From: a virus
Reading direction: 5' to 3' (one strand)
Length of the DNA: 64,000 nucleotides
IMG/VR virus record: IMGVR_UViG_3300046170_000502
Coordinates: 32,001-96,000 of that record
Positions 2,770 through 32,512 of this stretch are shown here, in pieces. The notes under the pieces were generated by a model that worked only from the letters and a program-made list of their open reading frames with translations, was not told where the DNA came from and did no database searches. The position numbers and the translations under genes were made by a program. How positions within the stretch are numbered: the stretch's first letter is position 1; each line of letters starts with the position of its first letter.

Positions 2770-3108
2770 TTCTCATGGATTTCCAACACTTTACAAAGAT
2801 TAATATAATAAGTCATTCATTCTTAATTATTTACAAAATTTTATAATTATTTACATTTATTCTTGACTTGTCTTTTATTATATTGTATAGTGTAATATAC
2901 ATATATGAAGAAGAGGAAGATAAAGTTAAGCATATAGATGTAGATCACAGATAACAATCTCCGAAATTGAATAGATGAAGATATGATCGAGCCTTCAACG
3001 AAAATATCTTAAAAAATCTTCCGAATGTTGACGGCAAGGATGAGATCGAGAAGAGCTTGAAAAATACAATACAAGAAATAAAAGATAAAAATAAAACATA
3101 ATACTTAA

Positions 3109-3327
3109 TTGCATAAAAAAATGGATGAATTACAAGAAATAAGTGCCGAAATAATAGAAATATTCAATACAAAGATAGGCGAACTATCTACAGAGCAAGC
3201 CGAAACCATAAATCTATGCAATAGTAGCATGAATTTTTACATGGAATTAGGCGAGCGAGAAAAAGCATTGTGGGAAGCCAAATATACATTACAATTATTA
3301 AATAATATAGTAAACAATGGCAAATAA
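3109..3327 (+). CDS. small helical protein, paralog of 3317-3544 (start possibly 3121)
   Basis: ORF; shares EII..N.S..F..E....A..EA pattern with the next ORF. Confidence 0.65.
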   Translation: MHKKMDELQEISAEIIEIFNTKIGELSTEQAETINLCNSSMNFYMELGEREKALWEAKYTLQLLNNIVNNGK

Positions 3328-3544
3328 ATATACTGATGAAGATGTATTACAATTATCATATGAAATAATACAATTAATTGAACAAAATATTTCTTGTTTT
3401 AATGATGATGAGACAGAGAATGTTATTACAAGTAATGAGAGTATCGCATTTCATGTAGAGAATGATAATATAGATAGAGCATATATAGAAGCACTCAATT
3501 TAAAAGAATATTTAATAAAATTAAAAAATAACAAATATAAATAA
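3317..3544 (+). CDS. small helical protein, paralog of 3109-3327
   Basis: ORF overlapping the previous stop; shared residue pattern. Confidence 0.65.
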   Translation: MANKYTDEDVLQLSYEIIQLIEQNISCFNDDETENVITSNESIAFHVENDNIDRAYIEALNLKEYLIKLKNNKYK

Positions 3545-3756
3545 TGCACGCACGAAGAGAAATAGATCATATATTAGATAATATTAATGAAATAATTGCA
3601 AAAAATAAAACATCAAATAAAGAAAGCGAAGATGATCGAGCAATGCTTGAACACTTGTACGCAACAATCAATCTCAAAACAAATGACGGCAAATATGCTA
3701 AAGGAATGTGGACTGACTCGCCCGAATTTAATTGTACAAATATTTTTATCAAATAA
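3544..3756 (+). CDS. hypothetical protein
   Basis: TAATG stop/start overlap with the upstream gene. Confidence 0.6.
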   Translation: MHARREIDHILDNINEIIAKNKTSNKESEDDRAMLEHLYATINLKTNDGKYAKGMWTDSPEFNCTNIFIK

Positions 3757-3758
3757 TC

Positions 3759-3835
3759 GGGGTAGTAGCTCAGTTGGTTAGAGTGTCTGCCTGTCACGCA
3801 GAAGGTCGCGAGTTCGAGTCTCGTCTATCCCGCCA
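3759..3835 (+). tRNA. trnD: tRNA-Asp (GTC) with encoded CCA
   Basis: Acceptor GGGGTAG/CTATCCC, D-arm AGCTCAGTTGGTTAGAG, anticodon stem TCTGC-CTGTCAC-GCAGA, T-loop GTTCGAGTC, 3' GCCA. Confidence 0.97.
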
Positions 3836-3893
3836 TTTGATTTTTTTTAAAAAAGGCTTGACAATCGCCAAATATTCTGCCATACTATTAATC

Positions 3894-4034
3894 ATGGACG
3901 AAATAACAAAGGAATTGCAAAAGATAAAAGACCAAATATCTATCTCAAATGGATACACAGATGATGTAAGAAAAGAATTATCTGATTTAAATAAAACACT
4001 AATGTTGATTGCCCAAATATTAAGAAATAAATAA
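3894..4034 (+). CDS. small hypothetical protein (true start 3894; the track's 3732 start runs through the tRNA)
   Basis: TTGACA-N17-CATACT at 3858-3886, 7 nt to ATG. Confidence 0.6.
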   Translation: MDEITKELQKIKDQISISNGYTDDVRKELSDLNKTLMLIAQILRNK

Positions 4035-4472
4035 ACAAATTTTTGCATGATATAAAATGCTTTATTATAGTATTTACTCTTATACAATATAATATACTAA
4101 ATAAACAATACAATTGCATGATATAAAAAGCAAAACAATATAACTTAAATAAATACTTAATTATATAAAATAAATTATAGAATATGATATACGAAATAAT
4201 ACATTCAATAGTAAGTTGCGTAGGAGCAATAACAATTCTAACATTAATATCTTTTGCAGTAGATAAAGCATATAGATTAATCGCAAATAAAATTTAATAA
4301 AATTATGAATCAAATAAACTCAAATAAATACTTAGTTGGAAAAAAGAAAAGCGGACGAGGAATGGTTGGACACAAGGGTGGATTAGCTACTCCAACGGGA
4401 GCATTCGGAGGAAAAAGTAAGTTCAACAAAAAAAAGCTTGACAACAAATCCTAATCTGATATACTTAGGGTT

Positions 4473-4724
4473 ATGAATTATTGCGAAGAACAACTTGAAT
4501 ATCTTGAGTGGCAAGCTCAAGTAGAAAAAGAAAAGAATACAAACCCATGCGATCTCGCAGAAGGAGTATATATGTTAGTAGATGATGCGAGTCCGAGCGA
4601 ATCGCCTATTTATTTTCGTTCACTTAAAGGTGCAGTTGATTGGGCAGAGAATGACGATCAATACATTTCTTATCAAGGACAAGAACAATGGTCTGTTTAT
4701 AGAGTTGGAGGAAAAGTACTATGA
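4473..4724 (+). CDS. hypothetical early protein
   Basis: TTGACA-N16-TATACT at 4438-4465, 7 nt to ATG. Confidence 0.75.
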   Translation: MNYCEEQLEYLEWQAQVEKEKNTNPCDLAEGVYMLVDDASPSESPIYFRSLKGAVDWAENDDQYISYQGQEQWSVYRVGGKVL

Positions 4725-4909
4725 CATTTCAAGAAATCGACATTAAAAATATTGACGGCATGATACCAAATGGTAGCGAACTCGCAGTTATTGACAGAAA
4801 AGATTTAATGAAAGATGATCTCGATCAAGCATTGATTCTCTATGGATGGGATGAAGTAGGAATGTTCGATCATGAATTTGATCTTCCAACATACGGATTC
4901 GTTTCTTAA
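4721..4909 (+). CDS. hypothetical protein
   Basis: ATGA overlap with the upstream gene. Confidence 0.65.
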   Translation: MTFQEIDIKNIDGMIPNGSELAVIDRKDLMKDDLDQALILYGWDEVGMFDHEFDLPTYGFVS

Positions 4910-5000
4910 AAAAAAGACTTGACAATATATTACATTCTGATATACTAGAATACATAAAACAAATTGCCGAAACTAATTAACCTAAAAATTATATAAAATT

Positions 5001-5222
5001 ATGAGTATTGCGAAAAATGCGAGAGCGAGCCAAGTAATGGCAGATATTAAAAGTGGTAAACATACACCTGCGAATAAGCAAGGTAAGTTTGCAAATTATG
5101 GATCAGTTGCCGAGGATAGTATATATTATTCCACCAAACTATCTCAAAAAGCAGATGCAGTTCGCATCGCACGAGTCGAAGCAAGTCGAGCAAGATTAAG
5201 ATTGAAAGGAATTTTTATTTAA
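5001..5222 (+). CDS. small basic hypothetical protein
   Basis: Promoter TTGACA-N16-TATACT at 4919-4946; ORF. Confidence 0.65.
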   Translation: MSIAKNARASQVMADIKSGKHTPANKQGKFANYGSVAEDSIYYSTKLSQKADAVRIARVEASRARLRLKGIFI

Positions 5223-5476
5223 TGATCGAGTCGCTATCCCCAAAAGTTTCTATGTTCGCCACAGAACAAGAACTCCGAGAAGAGTTAACTGAAAAAGAAT
5301 ATGTTTATGTTAAACTCGCCAAGCTAAACGAACATATCGCTGATCTTTATCATTGCACACAATATCCAAACAATAAAATAATTGATGCAAATAACTCATA
5401 CAAATATATTAACCAAATACAACAAGACCTATTAAGAATAAATAGAAGAGCAAATAATAAAATTACAAATAAATAA
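5222..5476 (+). CDS. hypothetical protein
   Basis: TAATG overlap with the upstream gene. Confidence 0.6.
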   Translation: MIESLSPKVSMFATEQELREELTEKEYVYVKLAKLNEHIADLYHCTQYPNNKIIDANNSYKYINQIQQDLLRINRRANNKITNK

Positions 5477-5485
5477 AAAAAGAAC

Positions 5486-5514
5486 TTGACTTTTAATCAA
5501 ATATAGAGTATAAT
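5486..5514 (+). promoter_or_regulatory. sigma70 promoter driving a non-coding transcript
   Basis: TTGACT-N17-TATAAT, no + strand ORF of 60 aa or more before the terminator at 5817. Confidence 0.8.
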
Positions 5515-5559
5515 ACTCGTATAACAATTGAGAAATAAACTCAATCAAATAAAATAAAT

Positions 5560-5571
5560 TGATCTTTAACA
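5560..5571 (+). promoter_or_regulatory. rrn-type boxA-like antitermination element preceded by a small hairpin (5527-5545)
   Basis: TGATCTTTAACA, 11/12 match to E. coli boxA TGCTCTTTAACA. Confidence 0.55.
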
Positions 5572-5584
5572 TTTTAAAAACTTT

Positions 5585-5794
5585 GGAGAGGTAGATATAC
5601 TTCTCCTGTGGGTGACCGAATAAGCCTGTCGTGAGCGGGCTAAAGTATGCAGATCCCTGTGGTAGGGTTGGTAGAGTTCAATCGAATGAGCCAAATGACA
5701 ATACCATGTCTAGTCTGTAGTTTGAAGTAGGTACACAATGAACTGATGTTCACGCCGAAAAATTGGAGGTATACAGTAGTCCTTCCCCACGCCA
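5585..5794 (+). ncRNA. candidate structured ncRNA of unknown family (about 210 nt)
   Basis: GC-richer island of successive hairpins (5585-5606; 5623-5641 with GTGA loop; CCCT/AGGG; GACA/TGTC; TGAAC/GTTCA); GTGGG 5608 can pair with CCCAC 5786; ends in GCCA; own promoter and terminator. Confidence 0.7.
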
Positions 5795-5816
5795 TTTTCT
5801 TAATCATGCATTCTAG

Positions 5817-5851
5817 CCTACTCAAGGTTTATTCCTTGGGTAGGTTTTTTT
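5817..5851 (+). terminator. intrinsic terminator
   Basis: CCTACTCAAGG-TTTATT-CCTTGGGTAGG followed by a T-run. Confidence 0.9.
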
Positions 5852-5888
5852 GTTTGACAATGATTCGAAATCTGTCATACTAGTATAC

Positions 5889-6143
5889 ATGAATACATTA
5901 AAAAACATTCTTGCGAACTACGGATATATAACCAAACCACAACTCGCCGAACTCAACGAACACTTTCCACACATGAAAGTAGTAATCAAGTGGGGAGGCA
6001 TGCCCCGTGATCGAGTTCCTGTTCGCCAAGCAGTGAAACTCATTAAAAATATTGAATCAAAAAACATCGACTATTGCAGAGAAGTATTCTTCGCATCAGA
6101 TGAAATGAGTAAGCTTAGAGAAGTATTTCACATTGCACAATAA
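5889..6143 (+). CDS. hypothetical early protein (start revised to 5889)
   Basis: TTGACA-N16-CATACT at 5854-5881, 7 nt to ATG. Confidence 0.7.
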   Translation: MNTLKNILANYGYITKPQLAELNEHFPHMKVVIKWGGMPRDRVPVRQAVKLIKNIESKNIDYCREVFFASDEMSKLREVFHIAQ

Positions 6144-6161
6144 CCATAAACAAAAAAACAT

Positions 6162-6737
6162 ATGATTAATCCAGCAGAAGTAACAAACTATAATAGAACA
6201 CAATACGAATTAGAAGAATTTATCTTGTTCTGTATTAATGTAGCAGGAAAGAAAAGTTCAATTGAAGCACCTAAATTAGAAGTGTTTATTGAAAGAGCAA
6301 AAGATATAACAAAAGAAACAAGTCCATTTAATTGTATAAGAAAATTGATTAAATTGGGCCGGCTCCAAGAGATCATGCATTGGGCAAAGCTTAGTCCATA
6401 TCAGCAAAGATACAACTCTTATGTTGCTGTATCAAAGATTCAAGACCTCCAAACCGTTACCCTGAACAGGTTATTGCAGGTTGCAGGCATCGGGCTCAAA
6501 ACAGCAAGATTCTTTCTTTCTCATAGCCGCGAAGACTTTGACGAACCAATGCTCGACACACATATCTTAAGGTTCCTTCGCGACCAAGGATACAGTGACG
6601 CCCCAAAGAGCACTCCTTCGAATGTCGGTATCTACAACTATTACGCTAATGTATTCAAAATGTTTGCAAGGACCTTAGGAAAGTCAGTTACTGATCTTGA
6701 TCTTGAAATTTGGAAAAAGTACTCGGGTACTGCTTAA
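6162..6737 (+). CDS. HhH-GPD superfamily DNA glycosylase/AP lyase (Ogg/EndoIII-like)
   Basis: LLQVAGIGLKTARFFL helix-hairpin-helix followed by LDTHILRFL with the catalytic Asp. Confidence 0.75.
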   Translation: MINPAEVTNYNRTQYELEEFILFCINVAGKKSSIEAPKLEVFIERAKDITKETSPFNCIRKLIKLGRLQEIMHWAKLSPYQQRYNSYVAVSKIQDLQTVTLNRLLQVAGIGLKTARFFLSHSREDFDEPMLDTHILRFLRDQGYSDAPKSTPSNVGIYNYYANVFKMFARTLGKSVTDLDLEIWKKYSGTA

Positions 6738-6966
6738 TGGATACTGCTACAATTATTATTGTTGCATTCATCATAGGCCTTGTCCGCGCCGTTCTAGAAA
6801 CAAAAAACGAGGATTTTTAGAAGCCAAATATTCTTCAGCCAAATAACACAACCAAATACCAATTATATATATTACAAATAAGGGGGAAACAAATAACAAT
6901 CCAAATAAATAAAGGAAGTAAAATGTAGATAAAATTAGAAAAAAAAGAATAAAATTAAAAATTACA

Positions 6967-7043
6967 TAAGTCGTTGTATATCAACAAGTTGCGGAAAATC
7001 CGCCTAGGCTTTTTTACGTAAGTCTTTGAAGCTCAACAACTTA
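6967..7043. repeat. 77-bp double-dyad element, copy 1
   Basis: TAAGTCGTTG-TATAT-CAACAAGTTG, 27-bp spacer with CCTAGG, TAAGTCTTTG-AAGCT-CAACAACTTA. Confidence 0.9.
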
Positions 7044-7108
7044 CAACTATATTCAATTAAATGAAAAAAAAGGTTGACTTGCGGTAAAAACCTGTCATAC
7101 TTGTATAC

Positions 7109-7507
7109 ATGATTAAGACAAAGCCTAACGAAAAAAGATATAAGATTGACTTTGGCAGTCCTGTTTTTGTTTACAAAAATCTTCACAAAAAATGTTGGAG
7201 CATCAAGCAAAACGGATTGGTCAAGGCTCATACTAAATTATTAGCAATGCATAGTTGCACCTTCAAGGTTAATAAAAATGGGCGACAAAGAGTTTTAAAA
7301 GAACAGCGTAAAAATGTTCATGCAGGAATCGAGGGCTATATAGAGAATTGGCAAATGGGTGATTGGAGAGAATCTCATCCCACCGCACGACCTGTTTCAT
7401 ACAACCCATATAAGTATGAGAATTTTGTTGACAAGGACACGGAACAAATGGTAGACTATGCTATTGCCGTAAGATTAGAACCCAAACAAGTATTAGCAGT
7501 ATTATGA
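7109..7507 (+). CDS. conserved hypothetical phage protein
   Basis: VYKNLHKKCWSI...GRQRVLKEQRKNVHA pattern recurring in phage early regions; promoter 7074-7101, 7 nt to ATG. Confidence 0.8.
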   Translation: MIKTKPNEKRYKIDFGSPVFVYKNLHKKCWSIKQNGLVKAHTKLLAMHSCTFKVNKNGRQRVLKEQRKNVHAGIEGYIENWQMGDWRESHPTARPVSYNPYKYENFVDKDTEQMVDYAIAVRLEPKQVLAVL

Positions 7508-7655
7508 ATGAAACACAAATGACCAAAACAAGTATCCAAAAAGAGATCATTGACCAATTTGACTATTTAAGTCCGAGAGAGTTAATGGTGATTTTCGAGT
7601 TAATCTTCGGAATGGGAGAGGTTCAACTAGATGAAGTAGATTGGAGTAAGTAATT

Positions 7656-7889
7656 ATGACACAAGCAAAAATTAGAGAAAACATTTTAAGCATCGTTCGA
7701 GGAGAAATGGCATACGCAGATCCAATGTCCAAGGTTTGCTTGGAGCAGAACGAGCGTCACCCCGAAAAGTTTCCACTTGGAAGTACATTTCAATCAGCCG
7801 AAGAAGTTTTAGAAGACATCATTTTAAGTTTGACATCATTGCAAAATGAGCTTAGAATAGAGTCTTCATTTCAATCAGCACAACTATAA
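7656..7889 (+). CDS. hypothetical protein
   Basis: ORF within the operon. Confidence 0.65.
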   Translation: MTQAKIRENILSIVRGEMAYADPMSKVCLEQNERHPEKFPLGSTFQSAEEVLEDIILSLTSLQNELRIESSFQSAQL

Positions 7890-7905
7890 ACACAAGGAAA
7901 AAATC

Positions 7906-8313
7906 ATGGGATTAGATCAATACGCATACGCACGACCACCACGCAAACGCAATTCAGACAACGATATTCAAGTTGCCGAGTGGAGAAAACACAATCGCTT
8001 ACAAGGTTGGATGGAACACCTTTGGCAAAGCAAAGGTTGTCCAAACGCAAATGAAGATGGTGATTTTAATTGTGCAGTATTACCACTCACATCTGAAGAT
8101 ATTGATTCTCTTGAAGATGCGATTCTTAACTTTGAGTTACCCCAAACGGACGGATTCTTTTTTGGTTCTGATTCTTATTTTTGGACTGACGAAAATGATG
8201 AACCTCATGCCGATAACGATTATTGGTACAAAGAATCTGACTTGACATTCATCAAAGAAGCAAGAAAAATGATTGAGAAAAAGCACAGAATTTTTTACTC
8301 TTCTTGGTATTAA
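7906..8313 (+). CDS. conserved hypothetical phage protein (MGLDQY/WRKHN type)
   Basis: MGLDQYAY...WRKHNRLQGWM...FYSSWY pattern; AAGGA upstream. Confidence 0.8.
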   Translation: MGLDQYAYARPPRKRNSDNDIQVAEWRKHNRLQGWMEHLWQSKGCPNANEDGDFNCAVLPLTSEDIDSLEDAILNFELPQTDGFFFGSDSYFWTDENDEPHADNDYWYKESDLTFIKEARKMIEKKHRIFYSSWY

Positions 8314-8351
8314 GGCTTGACTTTCGCTGAAAATCTGACAAACTATACATT

Positions 8352-8549
8352 ATGAGCATGACACTAGAAACACCACAACAAATTAACGCATTCCGATTAA
8401 GGACTCTCGCAAGAGGAATAAAATTGGAAATGAATGGATTAAAGATGTCGAGAGGTAGAAGTTGCTACTCGATTGTAAAATCTGAATTCGGATTCAAGGG
8501 CAACAAGCAATCTGTTCTTGACCAATTACTCAACCACATGGAGGGATAA
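8352..8549 (+). CDS. hypothetical early protein
   Basis: TTGACT-N16-CAAACT at 8317-8344, 7 nt to ATG. Confidence 0.75.
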   Translation: MSMTLETPQQINAFRLRTLARGIKLEMNGLKMSRGRSCYSIVKSEFGFKGNKQSVLDQLLNHMEG

Positions 8550-8551
8550 GG

Positions 8552-8761
8552 ATGAACGAATATATTGATGCAGTATGCGAGGGACAACCTCTTGACAAAC
8601 CAAGTTTCAACCAAGATTCAGAGCAATGGGAATTGTACTTTGAAGAGTCTGCCACGCCTTGGCATCCTTATGACTCAAGGGATTTAATCGCAGTAAGTTT
8701 TGACTCTGCCCAAGAAGCAGAACAATCTTACAACCACTATTCACAACCTAACCAAGGATAA
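8552..8761 (+). CDS. acidic hypothetical protein
   Basis: ORF 2 nt after the previous stop. Confidence 0.65.
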   Translation: MNEYIDAVCEGQPLDKPSFNQDSEQWELYFEESATPWHPYDSRDLIAVSFDSAQEAEQSYNHYSQPNQG

Positions 8762-8936
8762 GATATGCGAAATTCTCGAATTGAAAATCTTAGGAATAAA
8801 GTTCGCAATATGGGCTACGCTTTGGCTCAAGCTGAATTGCGAGGCTTGAGGGGAGAAGAATTGTTTGCTAAGAAATTGGCTCACAACCTACTTCTTGGCG
8901 AACTTTACTCTCTCGAAAAAAGGGTATAGTTAAAGG

Positions 8937-8966
8937 GGCGGGCTTGGGAAAACCCAAGCTCGCCTT
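8937..8966 (+). terminator. GC-rich hairpin, probable terminator abutting repeat copy 2
   Basis: GGCGGGCTTGGG-AAAA-CCCAAGCTCGCC. Confidence 0.65.
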
Positions 8967-9041
8967 AGCCTTTGTTATTCAACGACTTACGAAAAATCGC
9001 CCTGGCCGGTTTGGCCTAACTCATTGATACTAAGTAACTTA
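8965..9041. repeat. 77-bp double-dyad element, copy 2
   Basis: TTAGCCTTTG-N5-CAACGACTTA, N27, TAACTCATTG-N5-AAGTAACTTA. Confidence 0.85.
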
Positions 9042-11694: not shown

Positions 11695-11820
11695 ATGAAA
11701 GCGAAAAAAATTAAGATAAGACAATCCATTCTCTTTACAAAAGCTCGCCCTTTCAAGATGAAAAACAAAATTCTTGATCGGAAACTAAAACACAAAACCA
11801 AATTGACTTATGTATCTTAA
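11695..11820 (+). CDS. small very basic peptide (start revised to 11695)
   Basis: TTGACT-N16-CATACT at 11660-11687, 7 nt to ATG. Confidence 0.6.
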   Translation: MKAKKIKIRQSILFTKARPFKMKNKILDRKLKHKTKLTYVS

Positions 11821-12052
11821 CGACCCAAACCACTTGCAAGTCCAAGATGTTGACTCGCTCGAAGCAAACGAATTAGTTATGGCATTCATCCATGACAATA
11901 TGATCGAGCCGATGACCGACAAGAATATGCTTGACAATGATCAACTTTCAATGTTAAATGTAGTTGGTAGTGCGTTAAAGTGCATTGCTCAAAAAGCTCA
12001 CGCTTACGAAACTCTCACAGAATCGCAAGACTCATCTCATTACAGAAACTAA
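11810..12052 (+). CDS. hypothetical protein
   Basis: ORF in the operon. Confidence 0.7.
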   Translation: MYLNDPNHLQVQDVDSLEANELVMAFIHDNMIEPMTDKNMLDNDQLSMLNVVGSALKCIAQKAHAYETLTESQDSSHYRN

Positions 12053-31999: not shown

Positions 32000-32512
32000 A
32001 TGAAAGAACCTCTAAAAGAAAAATCATCTGCAGACACAAAATTCAACAATAAAAAAGTAAAATCTGAGTTATTTCACATCTGGAAAAAAGCCAGGGTCAT
32101 GTATGATATGATTAAAGATGACCAGGAATTGGAAACTTGGCAAAAAAACAATATCCGCGAGGCTCACGATTTGTTAAACGAAACAGCTACCTACACGGAG
32201 TATCAGAAAATTTTTCCAACACAAAAAGAAGATGACCCCGATGAAAACAAAAATAACTTTTTATCAAATGAAGATAAAAGGTATCCCGTCCCTGTGGATC
32301 AAGAAAACGGGGATCAGTTTATAACTAGATGTATATTGGACGCTAATATGAAAAACAGATATCCTGTTCAATCTGACAGATTTCAAGCTTGCATGACTAT
32401 TTTTAACGAAAAAAAACAAATTACTCATTCAAATCCTGGAGAAAAGTTTGAAGACCCTATGAAAAAAAAGGAGGATGATGATATTAATCCAGTTAAGCCT
32501 CTTCTTCCTTAA
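32000..32512 (+). CDS. hypothetical late protein
   Basis: GTGTA 9 nt upstream of ATG. Confidence 0.65.
   Translation: MKEPLKEKSSADTKFNNKKVKSELFHIWKKARVMYDMIKDDQELETWQKNNIREAHDLLNETATYTEYQKIFPTQKEDDPDENKNNFLSNEDKRYPVPVDQENGDQFITRCILDANMKNRYPVQSDRFQACMTIFNEKKQITHSNPGEKFEDPMKKKEDDDINPVKPLLP

Follow-up and report, generated by a model that had tools for sequence, protein, structure and literature searches.

A terminator-bounded manA RNA unit with a boxA-like leader in a group of marine phages

The DNA analysed here is a 64,000-nucleotide (nt) stretch of a viral genome (IMG/VR record IMGVR_UViG_3300046170_000502, positions 32,001 to 96,000; hereafter the window), which carries a complete manA RNA at 5585-5795 on the + strand, preceded by a promoter and an A/U-rich leader and followed by an intrinsic terminator. 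Scanning the entire window against Rfam 15 at curated thresholds resulted in two matches only, the manA RNA and one tRNA, and a permissive scan of the whole window for weak matches yielded nothing beyond these two. The manA match covers the full length of the RF01745 model (positions 1-192 of 192; 83.5 bits versus a cut-off of 55.2, E-value 9e-20), and all the sequence blocks typical of the family, namely GUGACYGAAUAA, the GUGGU loop, the ACCA loop and GGUAUACAGUARUCC, are present in the window RNA. The features of the locus are as follows.

5486-5514, + strand: sigma70-type promoter of the RNA gene, TTGACT-17-TATAAT, 11 of 12 matches
5527-5545, + strand: leader hairpin in a boxB-like position, ATTGAG/AAATAAA/CTCAAT, the stem covarying in relatives
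5559-5577 (core 5561-5571), + strand: boxA-like element TTGATCTTTAACATTTTAA, resembling the boxA region of E. coli rrsH and the consensus
5585-5795, + strand: manA RNA, type-B variant, assigned by the Rfam RF01745 match and covariation
5608-5612, + strand: 5' strand of the closing helix, GUGGG, paired with CCCAC 5786-5790 in the covariance-model alignment
5659-5664, + strand: loop L5, GUGGUA, complementary to L7
5701-5706, + strand: loop L7, AUACCA, complementary to L5
5770-5780, + strand: loop L9, TATACAGTAGT = UAUACAGUAGU, the most conserved block of the manA family
5815-5853, + strand: intrinsic terminator, a 13-base-pair (bp) stem at 5815-5846 (about -17 kcal/mol for the 11-bp core), then a T-run
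5854-5881, + strand: promoter of the next gene, TTGACA-16-CATACT with TG, kept directly after the terminator in most relatives
5889-6143, + strand: open reading frame (ORF) of 84 amino acids, outside the RNA gene and given for context, with no Pfam or PHROG family

The manA RNA was put forward as a "riboswitch candidate" in 2010 and has remained an orphan ever since. In that year, Weinberg et al. rated it as probable based on the complexity of the fold and the position in 5' untranslated regions (UTRs); nearly all the copies that they found came from marine metagenomes, T4-like cyanophages and two gamma-proteobacteria, and most occupied 5' UTRs (PMC2864571). The alignment was re-imported and revised in Rfam 14.3, with 48 significant base pairs (PMC7779021), and cyanophage papers list manA as cis-regulatory without any test (PMC9964418). 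The window RNA shares with the published manA the helices, the conserved blocks and the marine phage source. However, whereas the published copies are 5'-UTR elements of T4-like cyanophages, Photobacterium or metagenomes, the window phage has a DnaE-type polymerase, and its manA has a leader resembling those of rRNA operons (rrn) and a terminator of its own, a longer P6 helix, an altered P8 and alternative P1 hairpins, with the promoter of the next gene lying between it and that gene. The 5'-UTR position behind the "Cis-reg" label of RF01745, a contextual annotation outside the covariance model, is not found here, with terminator 5815-5853 and promoter 5854-5881 intervening, and likewise in 37 of 43 relatives. 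An earlier note on this stretch, made from the letters alone, had assigned the RNA to an unknown class; this assignment fails, the full-length RF01745 match being the very outcome that the note had named as removing novelty. The window RNA is a structural and contextual variant of the known manA family and no new RNA class. It is the setting that is new: the RNA itself is already catalogued, and manA as a self-contained, gene-like unit with an rrn-like leader is hitherto undescribed.

After two pattern scans of IMG/VR and a subsequent nhmmer step, 48 close homologues were obtained on marine viral contigs, 43 of them distinct, hereafter type B; the same search also returned 17 distinct cyanophage-style manA copies, hereafter type A. 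In type A, the promoter abuts the first hairpin, there is no leader and no boxA-like motif (0/17), a U-run directly follows the closing strand in 15 of the 17, and a gene lies 40-50 nt further on, without a separate promoter. Type-B units have the promoter ~45 nt upstream of the boxA-like motif, a leader usually composed of a hairpin, an A-rich tract and this motif (39/43), then the fold, a hairpin terminator with 5-8 U (37/43), a TTGACA promoter overlapping or abutting the T-run, and the next ORF. A TTGAC-N16-20-TAnnnT promoter occupies the corresponding place in 35 of 38 homologous leaders. The terminator stems are strong (-11 to -29 kcal/mol) and unrelated in sequence between lineages. They lie 13-31 nt beyond the fold in most loci (spacer range 5-93 nt), with no overlap with it; of the six loci that lack a hairpin terminator, four show five or more U in a row immediately after the closing helix. 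The 5' arm of a terminator acting as an expression platform would be expected to co-vary with part of its own aptamer, and we therefore compared duplex energies of the 5' arms with own and cross aptamers. Own pairings were better in 15 of 30 cases, with a mean difference of +0.28 kcal/mol, that is, no terminator/aptamer covariation was found. Because it has its own promoter and terminator, and because the terminator neither covaries with the aptamer nor overlaps the fold, manA in the type-B lineage is, judged from its sequence, a promoter-to-terminator RNA gene.

The RNA part stands out from the surrounding DNA. The G+C content of 5585-5795 is 46.4%, compared with 35.2% for the window, which places it in the top 2% of 211-nt windows, and that of the leader is 18%; the predicted transcript, 5521-5850, folds better than 100 out of 100 shuffles (z = -3.6). 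RNAalifold applied to 37 type-B sequences independently recovered the Rfam helices, with compensatory change in 21 of the 43 predicted pairs. With the Rfam structure carried over to these sequences and adjusted for type B, 88% of the cells were paired across the 37 relatives; shuffles reached 81%, none of 500 being as high as the real alignment, and slid controls 38-55%. Compensatory change on both sides was seen in 27 of 59 pairs. The closing helix is invariant in type B and reads GGGAG/CUCCC in type A, giving two compensatory pairs between the types; in the window, GCCA (5791-5794) directly follows it. The outer P8 helix of the Rfam model fits type B poorly, with a single clearly covarying pair, 5723-5762. 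The GC-richer, multi-hairpin stretch of ~210 nt described in the earlier note is borne out by these results, its closing stem is real, the loop at 5770-5780 is present, and covariation among homologues, the absence of which the note would have counted as refutation, was found. Its proposed pseudoknot between this loop and CTGTA 5715-5719 did not survive: the partner sits within the 3' strand of the covarying helix P4 (5649-5654/5713-5718), leaving no free partner, and is not conserved as a complement, with relatives reading UUGUA, UUGUG or GCGUA at this position. A separate observation concerns the first hairpin, P1 (columns 1-25 of A1/A2 in the type-B alignment), which comes in three unrelated versions (GGAGAGGTAGATATAC..., TGGAAGGGCTTATAATCC... 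and GATGTTCTCGACGGAGAC...), distributed regardless of similarity in the rest of the RNA, as if swapped as a module.

Upstream of the fold, the pattern G[AT]TCTTT[AT]A[CT]A defines the boxA-like motif of type B. Of the four leaders without it, three are cut by contig ends or have short upstream sequence, and one truly lacks it. Conservation extends beyond the search pattern to a T two bases before the motif (97%) and to the TTTT that follows (88-100%), in an otherwise drifted leader. The motif mostly lies 41-63 nt from the -10 hexamer, or 12-19 nt where the leader hairpin is absent. The gap between it and manA measures 12-15 nt at 23 loci and, at 16 others with unrelated inserted stem-loops, 62-219 nt. 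Spaced from the -10 hexamer and not from manA, the boxA-like motif is therefore, by its placement, a promoter-proximal module outside the manA fold. A count of the extended motif over 1.14 Mb of retrieved phage DNA gave 40 copies, of which 38 lie upstream of manA. The leader hairpin shows compensatory stem variants (TTAAG/CTTAA, TCGAG/CTCGA and CTGAG/CTCAG) and is missing in three relatives whose promoter abuts boxA.

The likeness of this leader to an rrn antitermination signal is well supported at the sequence level. The window segment TGATCTTTAACATTTTAAAA is identical at 16 of 20 positions to the boxA region of the E. coli rrsH leader, TGCTCTTTAACAATTTATCA. Against the consensus GYTCTTTAANA (PMC5725501), which is gamma-proteobacterial and may not be that of the host, the window core GATCTTTAACA fits at 10 of 11 positions and the variant GTTCTTTAATA, present in six relatives, at 11 of 11. 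The functional boxA of Legionella is GTTCTTTAAAA (PMC7862264), and the phage motif is closer to gamma-proteobacterial boxA than to the rrn leaders inspected. As in rrn leaders (boxB-boxA-boxC, bound by NusA/B/E/G and SuhB), a promoter-proximal hairpin is followed by a boxA(-like) element of 11-12 nt and an untranslated structured transcript. In contrast to them, the window version is phage-encoded, heads an RNA of ~210 nt and has A at position 2 in most copies, and no boxC or leader-trailer helix was detected in the manA unit. The minimum free energy structure pairs 5527-5535 with 5795-5803 in the manner of an rRNA leader-trailer helix, and this candidate was rejected, the own pairing being better than the cross pairing in 18 of 33 cases (mean -0.11 kcal/mol), without covariation. 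Beyond rRNA operons, boxA elements also stand ahead of suhB and of arrays of clustered regularly interspaced short palindromic repeats (CRISPR) (PMC5725501, PMC7862264). The earlier note had recognized much of this layout: the promoter and strong terminator are both where it placed them, the leader hairpin and the boxA-like TGATCTTTAACA at 5560-5571 are present and conserved, its "rRNA-operon-like boxA leader" is upheld as a resemblance in sequence, and its stand-alone, independently transcribed, structured non-coding phage RNA agrees with the promoter, leader and terminator of the unit and with its presence on contigs from marine metatranscriptome RNA libraries.

Among sequencing runs recorded as RNA, 18 runs from many studies contained a share of query words that fits the RNA part alone. 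Four of the 18 were examined, all as contigs, which give no ends, strand or level. One metatranscriptome contained a 195-nt contig identical to 5596-5790. In an estuary metatranscriptome, a 342-nt contig covering the leader hairpin, a 111-nt insert and 5604-5786 without differences reached a depth of 144.6, compared with 6.5 for a neighbouring-gene contig from the same run. An adapter-ended contig at 5786 and the uncovered parts of the unit were left unused as evidence of RNA ends. These contigs hint that window-type manA RNA may be abundant in marine samples.

In a July 2026 preprint by Ren et al., one manA RNA was found by cryogenic electron microscopy (cryo-EM) to form a 60-subunit, T=1 icosahedral cage, and others decamers or octamers (10.64898/2026.07.01.735769). 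All these particles are built of pentamers through intermolecular kissing loops, L5-L7' being combined either with L8-L9' or with L3-L8' plus a GNRA-receptor contact; the preprint is silent on the biology of manA and still terms it cis-regulatory (10.64898/2026.07.01.735769). The window RNA belongs to the same family and keeps the complementarity of the pentamer interface, with UGGUA in L5 and UACCA in L7 (5 bp), a match from which intermolecular and intramolecular pairing cannot be told apart. Complementarity of 4-5 bp between L5 and L7 is found in 40 of 44 distinct members of the manA family, with UGGC always accompanied by GCC and UGGU by ACC, a C-G/U-A switch in which the five switched sequences may be one clade. 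In type A, L8 and L9 are also complementary (ACUGUA/UACAGU), and in type B, a loop change from CAGU to CAGG goes without compensation. Whereas particles have been seen for the RNAs of the preprint, the window RNA is known from its sequence and its L8-L9 match is weak. Other RNAs offer a further parallel: ROOL and GOLLD, large ornate RNAs often located in prophages, were reported in 2024-2025 to form RNA-only multimeric cages. Like them, the window RNA is a phage-borne, free-standing structured RNA gene from a self-assembling family; unlike them, it is far smaller (~210 nt) and unrelated in sequence and fold, with no Rfam match to either.

Taken together, we consider it probable, with moderate confidence, that 5486-5853 is a free-standing early gene of an uncultured marine phage for a stable manA RNA, with Nus factors loading at the boxA-like element and self-association of the product as proposed parts of its function. 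The host sigma70 RNA polymerase would start at a predicted position near 5521, proceed through the ~64-nt A/U-rich leader with its hairpin and boxA-like element and then through the 211-nt manA fold, and halt at a constitutive intrinsic terminator, the next gene using its own promoter. As happens on rRNA operons and CRISPR arrays, host factors of the NusB/NusE type would be loaded at the boxA-like element, which would protect the untranslated transcript against premature termination by Rho and might aid folding. By analogy with the other manA RNAs seen by cryo-EM, the RNA may then self-associate through L5-L7 kissing loops into pentamer-based closed oligomers, and would act in its own right, with no metabolite sensing for the downstream gene. 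A free-standing, strongly promoted and terminator-bounded gene would be what an RNA building multimeric particles needs. A more far-reaching version appears rather doubtful to us, namely that marine phages use manA as a dedicated, rRNA-style high-output gene, that cages or decamers form in infected cells as an RNA compartment or scaffold, that boxA and Nus factors confer Rho resistance and co-transcriptional folding, and that manA was never a riboswitch.

Several points speak against the free-standing gene with its Nus-loading leader and self-associating product. In the window boxA, A stands in place of the Y of the published consensus, and the rrn leaders of small genomes related to one of the unit-bearing bacterial bins have TGATGTTTGAAAA, which fits less well. 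Rfam and the literature continue to place manA among cis-regulatory elements, and type-A copies do lie 40-50 nt upstream of genes. A low-depth RNA-library contig, 5423-5754, spans the promoter, indicative of upstream read-through or DNA carry-over. As to assembly, it was observed in vitro only, at ~3 mg/mL RNA and 10 mM Mg, and the preprint constructs were type-A-like or from Photobacterium, none being type B (10.64898/2026.07.01.735769). Finally, the L8-L9 contact used by the 60-mer amounts to only 3-4 bp in type B, and to just CUG/CAG(U) in the window. The existence of a large, abundant marine phage group with manA as a promoter-to-terminator gene argues for a stable RNA product. The boxA leader, the defined ends and the presence in metatranscriptomes provide a testable expression context for the question of whether RNA cages exist in cells, and the unit adds a phage non-coding RNA to the few non-rRNA transcripts that apparently use boxA.

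The leader leaves room for another explanation, to which we assign a real if minor chance: the motif would be no Nus-binding boxA, having been kept by descent or because it acts at the DNA level, for instance as a second tandem promoter or a protein operator. Consistent with this, a promoter-like TTGAGA-16-TAAAAT (10 of 12) at 5528-5555 overlaps the leader hairpin and the A-rich tract, all the boxA-bearing loci are homologous, which keeps their conservation from counting by itself as independent evidence, position 2 deviates from the published consensus, and the window shows no enrichment of the boxA 12-mer (4 matches at no more than 1 mismatch versus 1.75 expected). However, the flanking leader has diverged around a motif and TTTT that stay highly conserved, the motif persists despite insertions of 50-200 nt before manA, and compensatory changes in the hairpin and in pairings of its loop with downstream sequence (GGAT/ATCC, GAGGC/GCCTC and GGGC/GCCC) point to selection at the RNA level; moreover, one more copy of the motif heads a different, hairpin-rich RNA (contig L113, ~11760). 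By inspection, an IHF site, a Dam site and a leader peptide were rejected as readings of the motif, none being conserved across the variants.

The leaders themselves vary in ways worth recording. In 16 of the 39 motif-bearing leaders, unrelated stem-loop modules of 50-200 nt lie between boxA and manA (insert loci L029, L102, L112, L059, L055, L067, L100, L004, L043, L111, L012, L106, L096 and L074). In a second leader subtype (L002, L039, L052, L055, L072, L100, L106, L111 and L113), the loop of the hairpin has its complement immediately 5' of boxA, and these loop pairings covary, with GGGGC/GCCCC in addition to the three combinations given above. This pattern suggests an H-type pseudoknot with an A-rich linker in the second subtype, the subtype of the window being without it. 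Contig L113 also carries, at 11740-11960 on the + strand, a second promoter and boxA-like leader (AGTTCTTTTACATTTT), 3 kb from its manA. The RNA that this leader heads has a 10-bp closing stem (GGAGTGAGTG...CACTCACTCC) and a fold z-score of only -0.75, and matches no Rfam family.

In a classical riboswitch, the manA fold would be the aptamer and the hairpin at 5815-5846 the expression platform for the 84-amino-acid ORF and beyond. The succession of promoter, complex fold, terminator and gene is the textbook riboswitch order, it was on fold complexity and 5'-UTR position that Weinberg et al. rated manA a probable riboswitch (PMC2864571), and in type A genes follow closely with no promoter of their own. 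For the unit studied here, we regard this explanation as improbable, because terminator/antiterminator covariation was not found: terminator arms are no more complementary to their own aptamers than to others. In addition, the terminator in most loci stands clear of the fold, the strong promoter of the downstream gene abuts the T-run, and the genes downstream of type-B manA vary between loci, as do those in the literature, which have unrelated functions (PMC2864571). Over 16 years no manA ligand has been reported in the literature consulted, and cryo-EM revealed oligomeric cages and not a ligand pocket (10.64898/2026.07.01.735769).

It is highly improbable that the RNA is tRNA-like and CCA-ended, being aminoacylated or a decoy for tRNA-handling enzymes, as the earlier note had proposed from the G-CCA after the closing stem, and a tRNA-Asp gene does lie 1.8 kb upstream; the CCA is not conserved (ACCA, ACTAA, ACCAA, ACCTA or ATCTA in relatives, CCCTTT in type A), ARAGORN finds no tRNA or transfer-messenger RNA at the locus and Rfam no tRNA-like family, and the transcript would run ~55 nt beyond the CCA to the terminator. 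There is next to no chance that the stretch encodes small proteins, for although ORFs of 27-61 codons exist (5631-5720, 5647-5730 and 5746-5883 on the + strand, 5640-5825 on the - strand), they have no apparent ribosome-binding context and coincide with a strong covariance-model match, and the indels and compensatory substitutions of relatives keep helices and not reading frames.

The window encodes a DnaE-type polymerase, a class I ribonucleotide reductase, an ATP-dependent ligase and a large terminase subunit. No close cultured relative was found among 50,697 deposited phage records (INPHARED): blastn with 4 kb and with the 301-nt RNA gave chance 66-nt matches or nothing, and tblastn with the putative capsid gave nothing, in the same collection. 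Identity of the polymerase to DnaE-type polymerases of phages does not exceed 33%. The window phage is not a T4-like cyanophage, the group known for manA. The only bacterial records with a type-B unit are two contigs of metagenome-assembled genomes (MAGs), L122 (NZIN01000056.1, Rickettsiales MED606) and L123 (JAQXAG010000040.1, Neomarinimicrobiota), both carrying complete units with the phage-type leader. Most likely, these are phage contigs binned into MAGs and so provide no evidence on the host; the rrn leaders of the two MAGs or their relatives match the window boxA poorly.

Further observations concern the surroundings of the unit. In L104 (236-350), L026 and L122, a conserved element of ~100 nt lies between manA and the terminator (GCAAATATGCGGAGG...GCCTCTAGT.ACTATCATCGC...GGGTAACTCAATAAAAGCC); it resembles an extra co-transcribed RNA module and has no Rfam match. 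The ATG of the 84-amino-acid ORF (5889) follows the -10 hexamer CATACT (5876-5881) by 7 nt, without a Shine-Dalgarno sequence, so that the mRNA may be leaderless, and the same spacing from -10 to ATG is seen in L068 and others. The tRNA-Asp(GTC) gene located by ARAGORN at 3759-3835 (segment 3759-3886) comes directly after an ORF, with no leader and, unlike the manA unit, no boxA; downstream of it lie a T-run and a promoter, TTGACA-17-CATACT. Near-consensus sigma70-type promoters are dense on the + strand throughout 3000-9000, with 11 of 12 matches at 4438, 4919, 5486 and 7830 and 10 of 12 at 3858, 4791, 5854 and 7428, and the early region appears to be split into many short, separately promoted units.

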